The notes under the pieces: model-generated
Databases searched by the model: none
What the model saw: the letters and a program-made list of their open reading frames with translations, nothing else
What the model was told of the DNA's origin: nothing
Shown: one piece after another, positions 1,807 to 11,475 of the stretch
Layout of the letters: each line of letters starts with the position of its first letter
Position numbering within the stretch: position 1 is the stretch's first letter
NCBI GenBank assembly: GCA_041665925.1
Contig: JBAYHW010000002.1
Span: 26,838 to 90,837 of the forward strand
Reading direction: 5' to 3'
From: Minisyncoccota bacterium
GTDB taxonomy: Bacteria; Patescibacteriota; Minisyncoccia; Phycocordibacterales; UBA9973
Length of the DNA: 64,000 bases
Translations under genes and position numbers: made by a program

Positions 1807-2763
1807 ATGTCAAAAAAAGTAATTTTGTCAGGGATTCAGCCTTCTGGTAGGCCCCATATTGGGAACTATTTCGGAATGATGAAGCAACTCCTAGCCGAGC
1901 AGGAAGATTATGAAGTTTATGTGCTCATAGTGGACTATCATGCAATGAAGTCGGTACGTAGCGCAAAGGAGATGAAAGAAAACATTACTAATGTTGTGCT
2001 AGATTATTTAGCTCTTGGGCTTAATCCAGAGAAGGTTACATTTTTTAAGCAGAGTGATGTATCTGAACATACAGAGCTTTGTTGGATTTTCGATACCATT
2101 ACGACAATGCCATATCTGATGCGAGCGCACGCGTTTAAAGATGCCGAAGCCAAGAATAAAGAAATTGATGTCGGGACATTTAATTATCCGATGCTTATGG
2201 CTGCTGACATTTTATTATATAGTCCAGACATTATTCCAGTCGGCGCTGATCAAAAACAACACATTGAGATAGCTCGAGATACAGCAGAGAAATTTAATCG
2301 CACATTCGGAGAGACATTTAAACTGCCGGAAGCTATGATTATGAAAGATGTTGCCGTGGTGCCGGGCACAGATGGACGCAAGATGAGCAAGAGTTACAAC
2401 AACACCATCCCACTTTTTGCCGAGTATGAAGAAATTAAAAAGTGCGTGATGAGTATTGTCACGGACTCTGATGGAAGTTTTCCAAAAAACGTTTTTGCTA
2501 TACATATGCTTCTTCCTTTTTATTCAAATAATGAGTTGAGTAAAATTTATGAAGAACACCCTCGAGAGTATAAATTTTTAAAAGAGTTACTCATAGAAGA
2601 TTTAGAGAAATTTATTGCTCCGCTTCGTGAAAATAGAAAAGAATTTGAAAAAGATATCCCCAAAGCGCTTGCCATACTTAAAGCAGGAGGAGAAAAGGCT
2701 AAAAAGGTAGCAGAAGCGAAAATGGACGAAATTCGAGAGAAAATCGGGGTAAAGGTTTACTAA
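1807..2763 (+). CDS. trpS: Tryptophanyl-tRNA synthetase
   Basis: 318 aa. N-terminal SGIQPSGRPHIGNY is the class I HIGH-type motif. KMSKS motif is present (GRKMSKSYNN). Confidence 0.92.
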   Translation: MSKKVILSGIQPSGRPHIGNYFGMMKQLLAEQEDYEVYVLIVDYHAMKSVRSAKEMKENITNVVLDYLALGLNPEKVTFFKQSDVSEHTELCWIFDTITTMPYLMRAHAFKDAEAKNKEIDVGTFNYPMLMAADILLYSPDIIPVGADQKQHIEIARDTAEKFNRTFGETFKLPEAMIMKDVAVVPGTDGRKMSKSYNNTIPLFAEYEEIKKCVMSIVTDSDGSFPKNVFAIHMLLPFYSNNELSKIYEEHPREYKFLKELLIEDLEKFIAPLRENRKEFEKDIPKALAILKAGGEKAKKVAEAKMDEIREKIGVKVY

Positions 2764-2770
2764 GGTTTCT

Positions 2771-3067
2771 ATGGAAAAGAAAAATCCTAAAATACTAGAA
2801 TACAAAAAAGAACTTCTGGAAGTTTTTTCAAGTATTAAGGGCGATAAAAAGCTAATGGCAGAATTTTTAATAGATATTTTGACACCCGCAGAGTTCGATG
2901 ACCTGGCCCTCAGGTGGCAGTTAGTAAAAAGATTGTATAAAGGAGATACCCATAGAGCTGTAGCAGGGGAGTTGGGTTTGGGTTTAGGGAAAGTCATGAG
3001 AGGATCTAGAGAACTTCGTAATAAAAAAGGGGGGTTTAATCTAATTCTTAAAAAACTAAGTAAGTAA
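2771..3067 (+). CDS. YerC/YecD-family (TrpR-like) helix-turn-helix protein
   Basis: 98 aa. DILTPAEFDDLALRWQLVKRL...GDTHRAVAGELGLGLGKVMRGSRELRN...GGFNLILKKL matches the conserved TrpR/YerC-YecD pattern (LLTP.E...L..R, TG.S..TI.R, GG[YF].L.L). It starts 8 nt after trpS and is probably co-transcribed. Confidence 0.7.
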   Translation: MEKKNPKILEYKKELLEVFSSIKGDKKLMAEFLIDILTPAEFDDLALRWQLVKRLYKGDTHRAVAGELGLGLGKVMRGSRELRNKKGGFNLILKKLSK

Positions 3068-3099
3068 ACACGGTACAGAGATTTAAAAGTTATCCCCAG

Positions 3100-3144
3100 A
3101 TGCAATTTGCATTATTTTTTTGTCCTGCTACTATGTACTAGTAC
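3100..3144. promoter_or_regulatory. Operator-like palindromes: ATGCAA-T-TTGCAT (3100-3112) and GTACTAGTAC (3135-3144), with flanking GGTACAGA direct repeats
   Basis: Perfect 6+1+6 and 10-bp palindromes read directly from the sequence. GTACTAGTAC contains the ACTAGT half-site of the classical E. coli TrpR operator (GTACTAGTTAACTAGTAC). They lie immediately downstream of the trpS / TrpR-like pair. Confidence 0.35.
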
Positions 3145-3309
3145 ATGGGTACAGACTAAAAAGATAGATTAGGTACACATGTGACGACAATTATGAAAGA
3201 CAATAATAAAACAAATAAATTAACTAAATCATGGTGGGGTGGAGAGCTTATAGCTTTTGCGCTGTTCCGTTGATTTCTTTTCTCCTAATTTTCAAACAAG
3301 AAATTTACC

Positions 3310-3338
3310 AAATGGCGCACAAGCGCCATTTGTTCTTT
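3310..3338 (+). terminator. Putative intrinsic terminator: 9-bp perfect stem AAATGGCGC/GCGCCATTT, loop ACAA, then TTGTTCTTT
   Basis: Inverted repeat and downstream T-rich tract seen in sequence. It lies ~240 nt downstream of the TrpR-like gene stop. Confidence 0.35.
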
Positions 3339-3374
3339 ATGCCACCTCTAATAATAACTGAAAGGACCAGTGCC

Positions 3375-3548
3375 ATGGATGACAAAAGATCGGAAAATGT
3401 ATACACAGAACAGATGAAAGATGCACAAGAACTCATTTCCAAAGCCAGTGAAGCTCTGGGTGAGTTCAAATTTCGTACCGCATCCACTCTACTCAAACAA
3501 GCGACCGAACAGGTCGATGCACTGTGGGTAGACAAAACTTACTGGTAG
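3375..3548 (+). CDS. Hypothetical small protein (57 aa)
   Basis: Internal ATG of the 3231-3548 ORF, with AAAGGA upstream. The upstream part of the longer ORF looks non-protein-like. No recognisable family. Confidence 0.3.
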   Translation: MDDKRSENVYTEQMKDAQELISKASEALGEFKFRTASTLLKQATEQVDALWVDKTYW

Positions 3549-3579
3549 TTATTTTAGAAATAGAAGGGAGGTGATCCAG

Positions 3580-3609
3580 ATGTCTCTTTGGGATGACTGG
3601 TGGCAGTAG
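3580..3609 (+). CDS. Mini-ORF MSLWDDWWQ (9 codons, 3 Trp): candidate leader peptide
   Basis: Strong SD GGGAGGTGA 5 nt upstream of the ATG. Three Trp codons in nine. Followed 40 nt downstream by an intrinsic terminator. Confidence 0.3.
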   Translation: MSLWDDWWQ

Positions 3610-3647
3610 GAGCCTGATGGTAGCGGAAGTGGCTCCACCGCATCGCT

Positions 3648-3681
3648 GGTCCCGACGTAAAAATCGGGGCCATTTTTATTT
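3648..3681 (+). terminator. Intrinsic terminator: stem GGTCCCGA/TCGGGGCC (8 bp, one G-U), loop CGTAAAAA, then ATTTTTATTT
   Basis: Hairpin plus U-tract seen in sequence, directly after the Trp-rich mini-ORF. Confidence 0.5.
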
Positions 3682-3734
3682 CAGAGTAGTAGTATGATAG
3701 TATTGGGGCATTAATCAAGTTTTCCACAGGTCTA

Positions 3735-3762
3735 TTGCATTTGGTTTTTGGTATGTTATAAT
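3735..3762 (+). promoter_or_regulatory. Sigma-70-like promoter: TTGCAT (-35), 16 nt spacer, TATAAT (-10)
   Basis: Near-consensus hexamers with near-optimal spacing, upstream of the small Cys/His ORF and the GC-rich island. Confidence 0.45.
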
Positions 3763-3994
3763 ACACATGTAATGAAAATTTCACAGCGTAACAACTTTTT
3801 CTTTTTTAACTTTAGCCCTAACCTTAGAGGTCAGATATTTGCGCTGTAAAAAAGAACTTAAACAAAAACTTACAACTCAAACACCTGCCCTCTAAGGGGT
3901 GGGTGTTTTCGTTTCTGCGTGTGGCAGGAGCGAAAGGGTAAAGGGGCTACCTATCATAAAGTCCTTAATGAGTTGTTCTTTGGGAGAAATAGCC

Positions 3995-4168
3995 ATGTTT
4001 GATATCTCCACCCAAGTTGAGTGCCGCGAATGCGGCGCGAAGTTCGATCCGTTTTTCGGGCATAACTGCCCGAAGCAGAACAGCGTTGCCGTGGCGCCGA
4101 CAGCGTCGCGACGGGAACGAATCAGCTCGGATTTCCCCGACACAGGGACGTCCAACTGGTCGAAGTAA
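3995..4168 (+). CDS. Small Cys/His-containing protein (57 aa), possible zinc-ribbon
   Basis: SD GGGAGA 7 nt upstream of the ATG. MFDISTQVECRECGAKFDPFFGHNCPKQ... has CxxC...H..C. GC-rich. Flanked by its own promoter and terminator. Confidence 0.4.
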   Translation: MFDISTQVECRECGAKFDPFFGHNCPKQNSVAVAPTASRRERISSDFPDTGTSNWSK

Positions 4169-4194
4169 TTATTCGACCAGATCACAAGGAAGGA

Positions 4195-4236
4195 GGGGGC
4201 GAAGTCTTAACCGACAAGCCCCCACCCCTTTTTCTT
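4195..4236 (+). terminator. Intrinsic terminator: stem GGGGGC/GCCCCC, then ACCCC and a T-run
   Basis: Hairpin and T-tract seen in sequence, directly downstream of the small ORF's stop codon. Confidence 0.45.
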
Positions 4237-4353
4237 AAAAAATATATGAAAAATAAAATTTTAAAATATAATAATTTTTTCTTCAGCGTCAGGATTTACC
4301 CCGAGAGCTGATTTTTGCGTTTAAAAATATCCTAACAAAATATTTTAAAAACA

Positions 4354-4380
4354 AACACCAGCTCTCGTAGAGCTGGTGTT
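4354..4380. promoter_or_regulatory. Perfect 11-12 bp hairpin AACACCAGCTCT / AGAGCTGGTGTT
   Basis: Perfect inverted repeat with a 3-5 nt loop and no following U-tract, ~90 nt upstream of the fusion gene start. It could be a regulatory or processing stem-loop. Confidence 0.3.
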
Positions 4381-4467
4381 CCCGTTTAGCGGGGACATTG
4401 ATCTTTGACAAGTGAATAGTTGTTCTTTTTACGTTGGGGTCAAATCCAAAGAAAGGAGGTGAAGAAA

Positions 4468-6039
4468 ATGAATCCTACAGAAGTTAAAATTGTCATGGAG
4501 ACAATCAAAAAGTCTCTAGGCAACGGCGAGGATGGCTATAACCTGGCGGCACTTCTAAGAAGTGCAATCCAGAAGAAGGTCGCAGAGCTTGAAAAAGAAC
4601 GAAAAGAGAGGGGGGAAGAGGAAATTCAAAGGAAACTCGCTCTCCCTATTCAGCGGGCGGACAAACTTCTTTCTTCTGTTCCACGCCTAGTACTGGAAGA
4701 GATAGACAGTTACACCCGAAGTCATAAATGGGGCGAGCTGTCAGTCTCAGCCCAGCAGAAGTTGCATGAACTGGGCGTTCTCGATCTGTGGGCGAAACGC
4801 CGGACTTACGGACCGGATGGTGGAGAGAAACCTTCAGTCAGCTGGTTTGAACCATTCGGGAAAGCTCTGAAAAATCTCATCTGTAACAAGGTAGATGAGT
4901 TGCGTCGAAGTGACGCAGAGGCCACAGAGGCAGCTCGACAAGCTAGGTTGCAGCCAGCCCAAGAGCTTTTGAATGAGCTTTTAGCAAAGTCCGTCAGGCT
5001 TTCGCTCGAAGATGCAAAAGCTTGTAAGGAGGCGCTGGAGAAGTGGATCGAGGACAATGCCTACCGGCCGTACAGTGGTGGCGGCGGGGGTGGGAGTGGT
5101 TGTGTGGTTTCTGATTCGCAAGAGCCGTTCTTGCGAGGGCGATGGGGCCCGCCTATGAAGTGGCCCCCAACAAATTTTTCGGAGAGACAAATGAATCCGA
5201 TCAAAATCGCAGTGGTGGGATTCGGGGATTTCGGTTCCCGATTCGTTAGGTGGCTCCGGAAAGCGAGAGTCGGTGTCGAAACCATCGCGGTGGTAGACCC
5301 GATTCCTGGGAAAATCTGGGGCCCCGCGGGCGTTCTCGTGAGCCCCAGCATCCACGCAATCTCGCAGCGGGTCCTTTCACAGGTGCAGGTCTTCGTCGAT
5401 TGCACTTCCAAAGGGCAAGGCAAGGAGAATCTTGGTCTGTACCAAGCGCTCGGCAGACCGGCCGTGTTTCAAAACGGCGAAGACCGAGCGCTGTGTCAGT
5501 TGTTCCGCGCGGGCTCGACATTTCTTGCGGGAGCGCCGTACCTCCGCATCCCGCAGTGCTCGGCGCTGGCGACAATGAGTGTGTTTGAAGCGCTTCATCC
5601 GCTTCTCGACATTCGTTCCGTCTACACGCTCCATGCCAAGATCAACAACAAAGACAAAATGCTCGGCCTGGGCGACAAGTCTGCGGCCGACATCACCACG
5701 CTCGCAGAGATTCCGGCGGTCGTTGACGTGTGGTACTTGCGAGAGAAGCCGAAGCAGGGCCGCACGCAGTACGTCTACCACGGCAATCTGCACTTTCAGT
5801 GTGGGGGTGCAATTCCGTCGGCGGATCGCATTCGGAAAGCGCTCATGGCGTCCCGTGTGCCACTGTGTACGCAGGAGCTCGACTCGCTGATTTCACCACG
5901 TCTCACGCAGACGCACGTGGTCGCGGAGAGCATTTCGGTTCAGGGAAACAGCGTTCGCATGAACGTGATTTCCTGGACACCGGAAGTGAACTTTCCACAA
6001 AACCTGGCCGCAATCAAATTGCTGGCCAAAGTTCTTTAA
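4468..6039 (+). CDS. Fusion protein: unknown coiled-coil N-domain + poly-Gly linker + archaeal type-II GAPDH-like NAD(P)-binding dehydrogenase domain
   Basis: Strong SD AAAGGAGGTG 8 nt upstream of ATG 4468 (the track ORF starts at 4420). C-terminal half has IAVVGFGDFGSR (Rossmann), VFVDCTSKGQGKENLGLYQALGRPAVFQNGED (archaeal GAPDH signature DCTP.G.G..N...Y...G..A.FQGGE) and a conserved Cys in RIPQCSAL at the position of catalytic SCNTT. N-terminal ~230 aa has no recognisable family. Linker is SGGGGGGSG. GC is ~58% against a ~35% background. Confidence 0.6.
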   Translation: MNPTEVKIVMETIKKSLGNGEDGYNLAALLRSAIQKKVAELEKERKERGEEEIQRKLALPIQRADKLLSSVPRLVLEEIDSYTRSHKWGELSVSAQQKLHELGVLDLWAKRRTYGPDGGEKPSVSWFEPFGKALKNLICNKVDELRRSDAEATEAARQARLQPAQELLNELLAKSVRLSLEDAKACKEALEKWIEDNAYRPYSGGGGGGSGCVVSDSQEPFLRGRWGPPMKWPPTNFSERQMNPIKIAVVGFGDFGSRFVRWLRKARVGVETIAVVDPIPGKIWGPAGVLVSPSIHAISQRVLSQVQVFVDCTSKGQGKENLGLYQALGRPAVFQNGEDRALCQLFRAGSTFLAGAPYLRIPQCSALATMSVFEALHPLLDIRSVYTLHAKINNKDKMLGLGDKSAADITTLAEIPAVVDVWYLREKPKQGRTQYVYHGNLHFQCGGAIPSADRIRKALMASRVPLCTQELDSLISPRLTQTHVVAESISVQGNSVRMNVISWTPEVNFPQNLAAIKLLAKVL

Positions 6040-10984: not shown

Positions 10985-11377
10985 TTACGAGCTCAAACGC
11001 AACCCTTTCCGTTGTGGAGAAGAGTTGCTGCGATGTAAACGAGAAAGAATCAAGCGGTAGCCACCGAGGGAGCCGTAAAGCCATTTGGCGATGCGGGCGA
11101 TGGTGGTGGAAGAAAGCCCCGTCGATTCGCTGATAGCTTCGTATTGGACGTCGCGAGAGAGAAGCCGTGCGGCTTCGAGGCGCTTGCTGAATTCGGTAAT
11201 TTCCGCGGGGGTCAGGAGGTCGCGGAGAAACCGCTTAGCTTCATCGGTCGTTTTCAGCTCTAAAATACCAGCCACCAGCTGCCTGGTTTCCTTGGTATTC
11301 CAATCCGCATCCGAGCCGATCTCGGTCACCAGCCGGACTGTTTTTACCTTCGTATTTTTATTCATTCCCGTACTCAT
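10985..11377 (-). CDS. YerC/YecD-family (TrpR-like) DNA-binding protein, second paralog
   Basis: 130 aa. LRDLLTPAEITEFSKRLEAARLLSRDVQYEAISESTGLSSTTIARIAKWLYGSLGGYRLILSRL matches the YerC/TrpR family pattern very closely. GC ~52%. Confidence 0.75.
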   Translation of the reverse strand: MSTGMNKNTKVKTVRLVTEIGSDADWNTKETRQLVAGILELKTTDEAKRFLRDLLTPAEITEFSKRLEAARLLSRDVQYEAISESTGLSSTTIARIAKWLYGSLGGYRLILSRLHRSNSSPQRKGLRLSS

Positions 11378-11380
11378 CCG

Positions 11381-11423
11381 TCTACTTTAGCAAACTAAAG
11401 TACTTTAGTCAAGTAAAGTAGAT
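11381..11423. promoter_or_regulatory. Operator array: four alternating half-sites TACTTTAG / CTAAAGTA, including the perfect 14-bp palindrome CTAAAGTACTTTAG
   Basis: Read directly: TCTACTTTAG-caaa-CTAAAGTACTTTAG-tcaag-TAAAGTAGA. It lies immediately upstream of the TrpR-like gene start (11377, minus strand) and in the divergent promoter region of the GNAT gene. GTAC core as in TrpR operators. Confidence 0.5.
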
Positions 11424-11475
11424 AAAAAAGGTGTGGATAACTTTTTTCTTATAATCTATTTGCTATAATGCCTGG

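Follow-up and report, generated by a model that had tools for sequence, protein, structure and literature searches.

The described systems closest to the locus reported here are the TrpR repressor and the trpL attenuator of Escherichia coli, which are combined on one promoter (PMC7755916). The published TrpR motif is TGTAcTnGTnnACnAgTACA, with the half-site GNACT and an 8-bp spacer (PMC9413887). Published regulon reconstructions describe TrpR as a conserved regulator of gammaproteobacteria that the remaining classes of Proteobacteria lack (PMC5343134). In Chlamydia trachomatis, where the order is PtrpR, trpR, intergenic region and trpBA, no convincing trpL was described and YtgR is used instead (PMC7755916). 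HisR, the histidine repressor known as YerC in Bacillus subtilis, belongs to the same Pfam family as TrpR (PF01371) and has 20-bp palindromic operators (PMC9413887). In Sinorhizobium, the attenuator RNA rnTrpL and the leader peptide peTrpL act in trans (PMC6614838, PMC7298713).

Unlike E. coli, the host examined here is a very small, uncultivated Patescibacteria/CPR bacterium of Paceibacterota/Nomurabacteria-like type, represented by a 64-kb window (the whole stretch of DNA that was analysed). CPR organisms are usually held to lack most amino-acid biosynthesis and, to our knowledge, almost nothing is known about regulation in them. The window bacterium very probably carries an E. coli-type two-tier Trp switch, without trp genes behind it. 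We consider it highly probable that this switch consists of a 28-bp operator of a TrpR-type repressor, a promoter, and a leader attenuator with tandem Trp codons (WW), all listed in Table 1. If so, the joint use of TrpR and trpL attenuation on one promoter would extend past Proteobacteria and Chlamydiae, into Patescibacteria/CPR; the mechanism itself is familiar, so that the surprise is moderate.

Table 1. Features of the TrpR-like locus and of the YerC/YecD paralogue, in window positions
Feature	Position	Strand	Remarks
trpS (tryptophanyl-tRNA synthetase)	1807..2763	+	Pfam tRNA-synt_1b, E 1.3e-63; first of the trpS/TrpR-like pair
TrpR-family repressor gene, 98 aa	2771..3067	+	PF01371, 47.6 bits (cut-off 27)
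DnaA-box-like element GTTATCCCCA	3089..3098	+	1 mismatch to the conserved box AAGTTATCCACA (DnaA-box consensus); upstream of the -35
Short hairpin and T-run	3099..3120	+	3099-3104 pairs with 3108-3113; contains ATGCAATTTGCAT; overlaps the -35
Predicted -35 element TTGCAT	3107..3112	+	TTG kept at constant spacing to the operator in 45/47 non-redundant loci
Predicted extended -10 element	3126..3134	+	TG 3126-3127, TACTAT 3129-3134; from the position matrix
Predicted operator, TGCTACTATGTACT joined to AGTACATGGGTACA	3126..3153	.	Perfect core 3133-3146; centre between 3139 and 3140
Leader ORF MKDNNKTNKLTKSWWGGELIAFALFR, 26 codons	3193..3273	+	Tandem Trp codons 3232-3237
Predicted attenuator RNA	3231..3339	+	1:2 hairpin 3231-3270; antiterminator 3253-3279 with 3298-3324; terminator 3309-3332, T-rich tail
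57-aa ORF	3375..3548	+	From the ORF list; sole sizeable product of the putatively operator-controlled unit in this genome
Second Trp-rich mini-ORF, MSLWDDWWQ	3580..3609	+	Strong Shine-Dalgarno GGGAGGTGA
Terminator-like hairpin and T-run	3647..3672	+	From the terminator scan: 9 pairs, 6 GC, then TTTTTATTTC; would end the Trp-controlled unit
YerC/YecD paralogue	10985-11377		TIGR02531, 61.9 bits against a cut-off of 42.2

The preliminary description of this DNA had pointed to a perfect 10-bp palindrome, GTACTAGTAC, at 3135-3144, and had put it forward as a plausible cognate operator for the TrpR-family protein encoded next to it. The palindrome is indeed present, 67 nt after the stop codon of the TrpR-family ORF. 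It forms the middle of a perfect 14-bp palindrome, ATGTACTAGTACAT, which occurs only once within the window, and is also the centre of an imperfect 28-bp palindrome. The proposal had been tied to conservation in related genomes, and the palindrome is conserved there. We compared 61 relatives, with at least 60% identity and a contig extending beyond the stop codon of the TrpR-like gene, and identified TGTACTAGTACA 21-90 nt past the stop codon in 58 of them (52 exact, 6 with 1-2 mismatches); in the other three, the contigs stop within ~60 nt of the stop codon. Two entries, L001 and L002, are the same genome from other samples (100% identical) and thus add nothing to the comparison. The central 10 bp, GTACT followed directly by AGTAC, is unchanged in 47 of 47 non-redundant sites. 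In the position matrix built from these sites, conservation extends symmetrically over positions -14 to +14 and drops beyond +17, and TACA at +11 to +14, on the arm free of promoter constraint, is retained in 43-46 of them.

In a more distant group of five relatives (~50% identity; L067-L073), the sites GTACT-N8-AGTAC or GTACT-N8-AGAAC precede the TrpR-like gene by 20-45 nt; the variant ending in AGAAC is that of L067, and the L068 site is ATGTACTATTACAATAGTACAT. The distant-group site GTACT-ATTACAAT-AGTAC shows the 8-bp spacer cleanly, with the E. coli half-site and spacing. The 32-39%-identity homologues (L006-L008, L074-L080) carry no site that matches the 12-mer TGTACTAGTACA with 2 mismatches or fewer; of these, the distant homologue L074 scores as YerC/YecD. 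In most relatives trpS lies upstream of the TrpR-like gene, and 11 operator-bearing loci have no trpS there. These 11 loci, together with the upstream placement in the distant group, indicate that the operator travels with the repressor gene and not with trpS. Taken as a prediction from sequence, the GTACTAGTAC palindrome is very probably the binding site of the TrpR-like repressor, as had been proposed.

The operator resembles that of E. coli in its GTACT/AGTAC half-site around a CTAG core; in terms of the half-site definition of PMC9413887, it has inverted GNACT half-sites around CTAG, and its positions -6 to +14 line up with the published motif TGTAcTnGTnnACnAgTACA. It differs in that the strongest element here would be the junction of two sites, with no single GTACT-N8-AGTAC and with weak outer half-sites. 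The 28 bp may be read as a pair of 20-bp TrpR-type sites that overlap with an offset of 8 bp, and it is only under this reading that the 8-bp spacing appears. The right-hand site is then GTACT-N8-GGTAC and the left-hand one GCTAC-N8-AGTAC, with a degenerate outer half-site in each. The left outer half-site coincides with the -10 hexamer, and its conservation is thus confounded. The layout of overlapping sites with an 8-bp offset would match the tandem dimer arrangement of E. coli trp operators (PDB 1TRO, 1TRR), and the half-site duplex in 1TRR contains GTACTAGTAC. Unlike E. coli trpR, the repressor gene in the group of the window has no operator of its own upstream.

Conservation also points to a rightward promoter at the operator. 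The -10 positions are conserved at T-14 in 46/47 sites, G-13 in 34/47, T-11 in 45/47, A-10 in 45/47, A-7 in 47/47 and T-6 in 46/47, giving TG-n-TAyyAT at -14 to -6, so that the operator overlaps the promoter with its predicted start. The spacer between the -10 and the -35 is 16 nt. Since the -35 agrees with TTGACA at just 3 of 6 positions, the promoter was not listed by the promoter scan, and we therefore based the promoter call on conservation. As in the E. coli trp operator, the operator would cover both the -10 and the start site of a promoter under Trp control. The operator had earlier been placed in the spacer after the gene. It is more than an element behind the gene, as it spans about 28 bp and overlaps a predicted promoter that would fire downstream into a Trp leader attenuator.

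Upstream of the -35, TTATCCACA is exact in 31/46 non-redundant loci and present with at most 1 mismatch in 40/46; across 160 kb of loci it has 34 exact matches, and 31 of them are at this promoter spot. The DnaA-box-like AAGTTATCCACA element is also common to the Phe-leader and YerC promoters.

A small ORF homologous to the leader ORF (consensus ..KSWWGA...AFA..C*) was identified in 32 of the 47 non-redundant loci, that is, 33 TGGTGG matches less one false match in L016, and TGGTGG is unchanged in all 31 aligned leader sequences. In the RNA alignment, the terminator state is 93.7% paired and includes 9 pairs altered on both sides, whereas slid controls reach at most 49%, and the antiterminator is 92.0% paired, vs at most 50%, with 8 pairs altered on both sides. 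The attenuator of the window itself folds at -14.5 and -16.5 kcal/mol, and the MFE structure of the whole leader adopts the antiterminator. No Rfam family, Trp_leader included, passed the gathering threshold, nor was any found in 3050-4500 at E<=10, and a T-box or another known riboswitch or leader was rejected on this ground. The leader is predicted to work like a trpL attenuator, outside the curated Rfam Trp_leader family. It shares with E. coli trpL the short ORF with tandem Trp codons before region 1, the 1:2, 2:3 and 3:4 helices and the U-run terminator, but belongs to another sequence family, marked by the conserved peptide KSWWGA..AFA..C and an upper stem of GAUUUCUU/AAGGAAUC; in the window, it also differs from trpL in having no obvious Shine-Dalgarno before the leader ORF, no Rfam match and no trp gene behind it. 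In contrast to Chlamydia, the loci here carry clear WW or WWW leaders. The comparison also provides about 50 examples of this family of Trp leaders, together with several leaders of a Phe family; neither is in Rfam.

The operator and the attenuator would act in succession. When tryptophan is abundant, the repressor encoded ~60 nt upstream, loaded with Trp, would bind the operator at the perfect core ATGTACTAGTACAT and, by covering the extended -10 (TGcTACTAT) and the putative start of the rightward promoter, would block initiation. Probably two dimers would bind, on the overlapping 20-bp TrpR-type sites that have the central GTACT and AGTAC in common. Transcripts that escape would meet a second checkpoint in the leader ORF and its alternative 1:2, 2:3 and 3:4 helices. 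With Trp-tRNA scarce, the ribosome would stall at WW, and region 2 would stay available for the antiterminator; if the ribosome instead arrives at the leader stop codon, it would mask region 2 and the terminator would form. In relatives the cassette would drive trpE, trpD, trpB or trpA, while here it would drive only the 57-aa ORF and the second Trp-rich mini-ORF.

Using Pfam or local BLAST, we detected TrpA, TrpE, TrpD or TrpB downstream in L013, L023, L035, L010, L018, L016, L031, L043 and L069. After the cassette, trpD is found in L010 and L018, trpE in L023 and L035, and trpB and trpA in L013. In L069, of the distant group, the order is operator, trpR-like gene, leader and trpB, which parallels the PtrpR, trpR, intergenic region, trpBA order of Chlamydia trachomatis, where trpR is likewise linked to trp salvage or biosynthesis genes. 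In the window, on the other hand, no trp biosynthesis genes were found behind the cassette or elsewhere in the 64 kb, and only small ORFs lie downstream. The 57-aa ORF matches no Pfam or NCBIfam family. It is missing from L086, a relative with 90% identity, which makes its reality as a gene uncertain, and L087 has different small ORFs instead. The second mini-ORF has counterparts in L025 (MGLWDWWL), L056 (MLWDWWF), L060 (MGWSDDWWF), L003 (MTGWSLDDWWQ..) and L086 (MSLWDDWWQKGA); a clear antiterminator for it was sought in the window and was not found. The cassette may flag further genes tied to Trp supply, such as FAD oxidases and uncharacterised products of 427, 477-483 and 744-761 aa.

Perhaps the TrpR operator, the WW attenuator and the WDDWW mini-ORF form a two-tier sensor uncoupled from Trp synthesis, a stand-alone Trp-availability switch whose outputs would be small proteins and/or the released RNA or peptide of the leader, active in trans; we offer this tentatively and regard it as rather unlikely. 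The freed short RNA or peptide of a Trp attenuator could have a role of its own, in likeness to rnTrpL and peTrpL of Sinorhizobium, and such trans action is a mere lead for why the cassette might persist without trp genes. If the stand-alone switch were real, an ultrasmall bacterium dependent on a host might use it to gauge its amino-acid supply, and the DnaA-box-like AAGTTATCCACA element would be its third input.

The lack of trp genes downstream of the cassette and within the window, together with a payload that varies among the closest relatives, could also mean that what survives here of the operator and leader is a relic of evolution, intact in sequence but with their useful control gone as trp genes were lost from the locus. 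We find this unlikely. The window, L086 and L087 (82% identity) have all kept an intact operator core and WW leader, along with the two helices and the second mini-ORF, and purifying selection is evident on the repressor subclade. Moreover, the search for trp genes was limited to the window, and the contig is 124 kb long, so that over 60 kb of it, as well as the other contigs, lie outside.

The repressor itself had been labelled as YerC/TrpR-like. The 98-aa protein scores 35.2 bits with the TIGR01321 TrpR model, under its cut-off of 67.25 (the L068 protein of the distant group reaches 65.5), and 19.9 bits with the YerC/YecD model TIGR02531, against a cut-off of 42.2. The family profile matches E. 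coli TrpR structures at E 2e-7 and YerC-like structures more weakly, at 5e-6 to 5e-5, and the NCBI name of the protein is 'Trp family transcriptional regulator [Candidatus Paceibacterota bacterium]'. By these comparisons the protein is TrpR-like, not YerC-like; the true YerC/YecD gene is found elsewhere in the window. The promoter of that paralogue has two tandem TACTTTA-N6-TAAAGTA sites, HisR-like, the palindrome of which is conserved in four relatives, so that each paralogue has its own motif. Reading the sequence of 3068-3160, we found no HisR-type operator, cacTTTA-N6-TAAAgtg. The 98-aa protein thus differs from HisR, within the same PF01371 family, in its TGTACT-type site and in a TrpR score above its YerC/YecD score.

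The consensus helix of the family, elglGISTVTRGS, is a near match to that of E. coli, ELGAGIATITRGS, which adds to the likeness with E. coli TrpR given by the shared protein family. The subclade of the window protein, however, has GLGLGKVMRGS vs the family consensus GLGISTVTRGS, and so differs from E. coli in having Lys and Met at the equivalents of Thr81 and Thr83; despite this, the operator core is unaltered. No consistent pattern of covariation was found between the GKVMRGS-subclade helix and the GGTACA outer half-site, since in L056 and L063 the consensus helix goes together with GGTACA. Of the E. coli TrpR residues that line the Trp pocket, the equivalents of Thr44, Arg54, Arg84 and Gly85 are retained in the alignment, in line with Trp as the putative corepressor; residues 31-88 of the E. 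coli sequence used there agree with those in the profile match to E. coli TrpR. A common GTACT half-site and a near-identical helix over so large a phylogenetic distance would constitute a natural experiment on TrpR-DNA recognition, with the zero-spacer junction vs the N8 site, and the Thr81/Thr83 substitutions vs the unaltered core, as its contrasts.

It could be argued that the operator is real but serves another protein, either the YerC/YecD paralogue or some other factor, and that its adjacency to the TrpR-like gene is mere synteny. The second conserved element, AAGTTATCCACA, does suggest that at least one more factor probably acts at the promoter. Nevertheless, this explanation is very unlikely, as the site stays linked to the TrpR-like gene whether downstream or upstream of it and also without trpS, its half-site is the same as that of E. 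coli TrpR, to which the family consensus is also nearly identical in the recognition helix, and the YerC paralogue has a distinct HisR-like motif.

The 6+1+6 palindrome ATGCAA-T-TTGCAT (ATGCAATTTGCAT) is present at 3100-3112, as described earlier, and fits a hairpin with a T-run better than a protein site. It folds at -4.6 kcal/mol (z -3.0), with a 6-pair stem (2 G-C) followed by UUAUUUUUUU, and is too weak for the criteria of the terminator scan. A stem of at least 4 bp forms from the bases after the invariant TTG in 33/45 relatives vs 1-4/45 in shifted controls. We rejected it as a second operator, since its arms are not conserved but covary among relatives (GCAC/GTGC, GCCT/AGGC, GCCACC/GGTGGC). 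It is probably the intrinsic terminator of trpS/TrpR-like transcription, overlapping the -35 of the next promoter.

Any palindrome is capable of forming a hairpin and, with ATGCAATTTGCAT acting as one next to it, the operator palindrome could itself work as a nucleic-acid structure, a 5' hairpin in RNA or a cruciform in DNA; if transcribed from upstream, AUGUACUAGUACAU would give 5 bp with a 4-nt loop. Yet this possible stem is very weak, the left arm of the palindrome coincides with the -10 region and is probably absent from the transcript, and the operator sequence is invariant and not covarying, the opposite of what is found in the ATGCAATTTGCAT hairpin. Furthermore, the arms in the distant group are 8 bp apart with a spacer variable in sequence, which fits protein half-sites. 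We regard a purely structural role as highly improbable.

A lone palindrome is statistically ordinary for a 64-kb window, which holds nine perfect 14-bp palindromes vs 5.8 +/- 2.5 in shuffles and 16 GTACT-N8-AGTAC-like sites vs 15.7 expected. The window statistics alone thus prove nothing, and conservation in the relatives is the deciding evidence; a chance palindrome in an AT-rich spacer has a negligible probability, having already been refuted by the exact 12-mer TGTACTAGTACA, which recurs in the same place in over 50 independent loci. We sought further copies of the operator across the window and found none, the 14-mer at 3 mismatches giving 5 hits vs 2.5 expected. The repeat GGTACAGA occurs 3 times in the window vs 0.66 expected, a count reached by 3/100 shuffles. 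Two copies had been noted as direct repeats at 3072 and 3150; both exist, at 3072-3079 and 3148-3155, the second starting 2 nt earlier than had been given. As a meaningful direct repeat GGTACAGA was rejected, since its first copy is missing in all relatives, the 90%-identity one included. From this comparison, the copy at 3072-3079 is attributed to chance, and that at 3148-3155 is the outer half-site of the predicted operator.

The 10-bp palindrome GTACTAGTAC that the preliminary description reported behind the TrpR-like gene was found at 3135–3144, at the centre of a perfect 14-bp palindrome, ATGTACTAGTACAT (3133–3146, read from the sequence), which occurs only once within the window. The 6+1+6 palindrome ATGCAATTTGCAT was likewise present at 3100–3112. 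As for the direct repeat GGTACAGA, one copy was located at 3072–3079 as described, and the other lies at 3148–3155 rather than at 3150. Within the window, neither perfect 14-bp palindromes (9 vs. 5.8 ± 2.5 in shuffles) nor GTACT-N8-AGTAC-like sites (16 vs. 15.7 expected) were in excess; therefore, the case depends on comparison with relatives.

Three Candidatus Nomurabacteria MAGs (66–73% identity) were identified by a genome scan and 73 more loci by a metagenome scan, and two nearer relatives (90% and 82% identity) were added by look-up; the identical protein was also found on a 124-kb ENA contig and a Logan contig, both 100% identical to the window. The loci compared are referred to here by L numbers (L001 and so on). 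Among the 61 relatives with at least 60% identity and a contig reaching past the stop codon of the TrpR-like gene, 58 had TGTACTAGTACA 21–90 nt past that codon (52 exact, 6 with 1–2 mismatches), and in the remaining three the contigs stop within about 60 nt of it. The palindrome is thus conserved in related genomes, a lack of which was named beforehand as refuting the preliminary reading, and its occurrence by chance is excluded. All 47 non-redundant sites share the same central GTACTAGTAC, around which conservation runs symmetrically from −14 to +14, with TGyTAyyATGTACT and AGTACATrraTACA on the two sides of the centre, fading past +17. The GGTACAGA copy at 3148–3155 is the right outer half-site of this putative operator (GGTACA; GATACA in most relatives), and no counterpart of the copy at 3072–3079 was found in any of the related loci compared. 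The site tracks the repressor gene and not trpS, as eleven loci that bear the operator lack an upstream trpS.

In a distant group (L067–L073, ~50% identity), resembling Chlamydia trpRBA, the site follows a TTGACA/TATAGT-type promoter and precedes the repressor gene by 20–45 nt; it reads, for example, ATGTACTATTACAATAGTACAT, which is GTACT-N8-AGTAC (AGAAC in L067). The same half-site and 8-bp spacer are known from E. coli TrpR, with the published motif TGTAcTnGTnnACnAgTACA (PMC9413887). No such palindrome was found near the gene in homologues at 32–39% identity, of which the only member scanned, L074, scores as YerC/YecD.

Four elements precede the palindrome in the relatives: a TTG that is invariant in sequence and distance, a 16-nt T-rich spacer, a TG and then TAyyAT. 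From these we infer an extended −10 promoter with its start at about 3140–3142, at the palindrome centre, which the consensus scan did not list because its −35 agrees at only 3/6 positions. With the −10 and the start within the palindrome, the putative operator would thus cover both, the position expected of a repressor. Positions −6 to +14 (TGTACTAGTACATGGGTACA in the window) agree with most specified positions of the 20-bp TrpR motif, and so does the mirror site from −14 to +6; therefore, we model the element as a pair of overlapping TrpR sites, shifted by 8 bp against each other and with the central 12 bp in common, which is how tandem TrpR dimers are arranged in E. coli. Both outer half-sites are degenerate, the left one serving at the same time as the −10. 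DNA binding by the protein, its corepressor and stoichiometry, the transcription start and ribosome stalling are all predictions here.

Coordinates of the features in the window
Feature	Position	Strand	Description
dnaB-trpS gap	1716–1806		gene strand flips from − to +
trpS	1807–2763		precedes TrpR-like gene
TrpR-like gene	2771–3067	+	98 aa
TTGCAT	3107–3112		candidate −35
TG	3126–3127		predicted extended −10
TACTAT	3129–3134		predicted −10
Leader ORF MKDNNKTNKLTKSWWGGELIAFALFR	3193–3273		26 codons, ~55 nt past predicted start
Antiterminator	3253–3279 with 3298–3324		predicted pairing
Small ORF	3375–3548		57 aa, behind leader; candidate gene
Mini-ORF MSLWDDWWQ	3580–3609		9 codons, three Trp codons; strong Shine-Dalgarno sequence
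Terminator	3647–3672		after mini-ORF
Phe-rich leader ORF MKISQRNNFFFFNFSPNLRGQIFAL	3735–3908
Small ORF	3995–4168		candidate gene
Phe-rich leader ORF MKNKILKYNNFFFSVRIYPES	4246–4380
523-aa ORF	4468–6039		behind second Phe leader
Second TrpR-family gene	10985–11377	−	TIGR02531 YerC/YecD, 61.9 bits (cut-off 42.2)
YerC/YecD promoter	11382–11443		tandem sites, 11421–11382
AAGTTATCCACA	3089–3098, 3719–3728, 11432–11443 (−)		includes DnaA-box consensus

In 33/45 relatives (1–4/45 in controls shifted by 6–9 nt), a stem can form between the bases after the invariant TTG and a complementary arm 3–7 nt upstream, with arms that covary (GCAT/ATGC, GCAC/GTGC, GCCT/AGGC, GCGC/GCGC, GCCACC/GGTGGC, GCCTCC/GGAGGC). 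That they covary without sequence conservation points to ATGCAATTTGCAT as an RNA hairpin (−4.6 kcal/mol, z −3.0 in the window, followed by a T-run). Its simplest reading is as a terminator for the trpS/TrpR-like transcript that overlaps the next promoter's −35. A structural role, as RNA or DNA, is unlikely for the operator palindrome itself, the sequence of which is invariant and not covarying, and the arms of which can stand 8 bp apart (L067–L073).

The TrpR-like protein, named 'Trp family transcriptional regulator [Candidatus Paceibacterota bacterium]' at NCBI, had been labelled YerC/TrpR-like. Its place in the Trp_repressor family was confirmed (PF01371, 47.6 bits, cut-off 27), whereas the YerC part of the label was not, as the NCBIfam TrpR model (35.2 bits, under its 67.25 cut-off) ranks above YerC/YecD (19.9 bits, cut-off 42.2). 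With a four-member family profile, E. coli TrpR structures (E 2e-7) came ahead of the YerC-like 3kor (5e-6), 3g1c (3e-5) and 3frw (5e-5). The family-consensus helix elglGISTVTRGS aligned with E. coli ELGAGIATITRGS, and the residues that correspond to the Trp-pocket residues Thr44, Arg54, Arg84 and Gly85 of E. coli are retained. The subclade of the window has GLGLG(K/T)VMRGS, consistent in six proteins (77–100% identity), and its operators have an unchanged core. In L022, L038, L045, L055 and L064, the TrpS in the same place is 31–35% identical to that of the window (69–86% in other loci); trpS appears to be replaced in some lineages by a different type of tryptophanyl-tRNA synthetase.

The second TrpR-family gene served as an internal control. 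In its promoter stand two TACTTTA-N6-TAAAGTA sites in tandem, kept in four relatives (L082–L085), which cover the −35 (TTGACT) and −10 (TAAAGT) and match the HisR consensus of Firmicutes, cacTTTAnnnnnnTAAAgtg (PMC9413887). The conspicuous perfect palindrome here, CTAAAGTACTTTAG, is the junction of two sites, as modelled for the TrpR-like operator. For a CPR bacterium, the tandem sites suggest autoregulation of a YerC/YecD gene through a HisR-like repressor. Each paralogue thus has its own subfamily-type palindrome, which favours assigning the TGTACT site to the TrpR-like protein. That the operator belongs to another protein is improbable; nothing points to one. The earlier reading of GTACTAGTAC as a putative cognate operator is backed by conservation, gene linkage and the paralogue.

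A homologous leader ORF, with the consensus ..KSWWGA...AFA..C, follows in 32/47 non-redundant loci, and TGGTGG is invariant in an alignment of 31 leaders, for which RNAalifold gave a hairpin directly after the Trp codons and a terminator. The state with the 1:2 hairpin and 3:4 terminator had 93.7% of cells paired (≤49% in slid controls; 9 pairs changed on both sides) and the 2:3 antiterminator state 92.0% (≤50%; 8 pairs), counts that support two mutually exclusive RNA states. In the window, the 1:2 hairpin folds at −14.5 kcal/mol and the terminator at −16.5 kcal/mol (z −4.4), and the MFE of the whole leader adopts the antiterminator. No Rfam family matches the leader; its alternating-helix logic is that of E. 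coli trpL (summarised in PMC7755916). The predicted functional design, TrpR repression and trpL-like attenuation on one promoter, is the same as in E. coli, of which this arrangement would be a further case. In public records the genes already carry a Trp repressor annotation. The searchable literature describes TrpR regulons in gammaproteobacteria, with the other proteobacterial classes reported to lack them (PMC5343134), and in Chlamydia; no paper was found in it for 'trp repressor' together with Patescibacteria/CPR.

Behind the cassette of operator, leader and attenuator, we identified TrpE (L023, L035), TrpD (L010, L018), TrpB (L013, L016, L031, L043, and L069 of the distant group) and TrpA (L013). 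Other loci have an Asp/Glu racemase, DAO-family FAD oxidases, a PEP-utilising enzyme or proteins without a Pfam family, and the right border of this variable island is usually an aspartyl/asparaginyl-tRNA synthetase gene. No such genes follow the cassette in the window, and no trp gene was found in the whole 64 kb. Operator and leader may possibly be a relic here, although three genomes at 82–100% identity have kept the cassette intact.

The MSLWDDWWQ mini-ORF is conserved in L003, L025, L056, L060 and L086, the last of which (90% identity) has the same operator and leader without the 57-aa ORF. The L003 copy immediately precedes the Asp/Asn-tRNA synthetase gene. Downstream of the mini-ORF, a CCACCGC element could pair with the GGTGG of its Trp codons. 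Post-leader small ORFs (57–164 aa, window and relatives), mutually unrelated by BLAST, were also found in L012, L013, L015, L019, L027, L029, L033, L040, L058, L060 and L066, several with a Trp-containing tail (..KTYW, ..GWGWK, ..RPWG, ..SGWD) or CxxC zinc-ribbon-like pairs.

A strong hairpin (AAACACC..GGTGTTT) comes after each Phe-rich leader, the first of which also has a promoter of its own, TTGCAT-16-TGtTATAAT. This family, FFFF..RRLIFAL-stop, is conserved in L017, L029, L040 and L087, without a match in Rfam; its place right before EPSP synthase in L087 makes it look like an attenuator of the Phe type that serves genes of the aromatic pathway. AAGTTATCCACA, which includes the DnaA-box consensus TTATCCACA and is present in most related loci, is conserved 6–22 nt ahead of the Trp-leader promoter's −35, with an exact copy in 31/46 loci; 31 of its 34 exact occurrences in 160 kb fall at this spot. 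It was also found upstream of the Phe-leader promoter (window, L017) and of that of the YerC-like gene. The 523-aa ORF (~58% G+C vs. ~37% for the genome), with a PRPP synthetase gene next, has no Pfam family and is possibly acquired DNA. Its N-terminal half is charged, it contains a Gly run, and towards the C-terminus it weakly resembles type II (archaeal) GAPDH (E 8.6e-10, ~90 residues). At the dnaB-trpS gap, the genes change from the minus strand (recR, dnaB and those upstream, in L001) to the plus strand, and the cumulative GC skew climbs from there and turns over near 26–27 kb, which could reflect replication landmarks.
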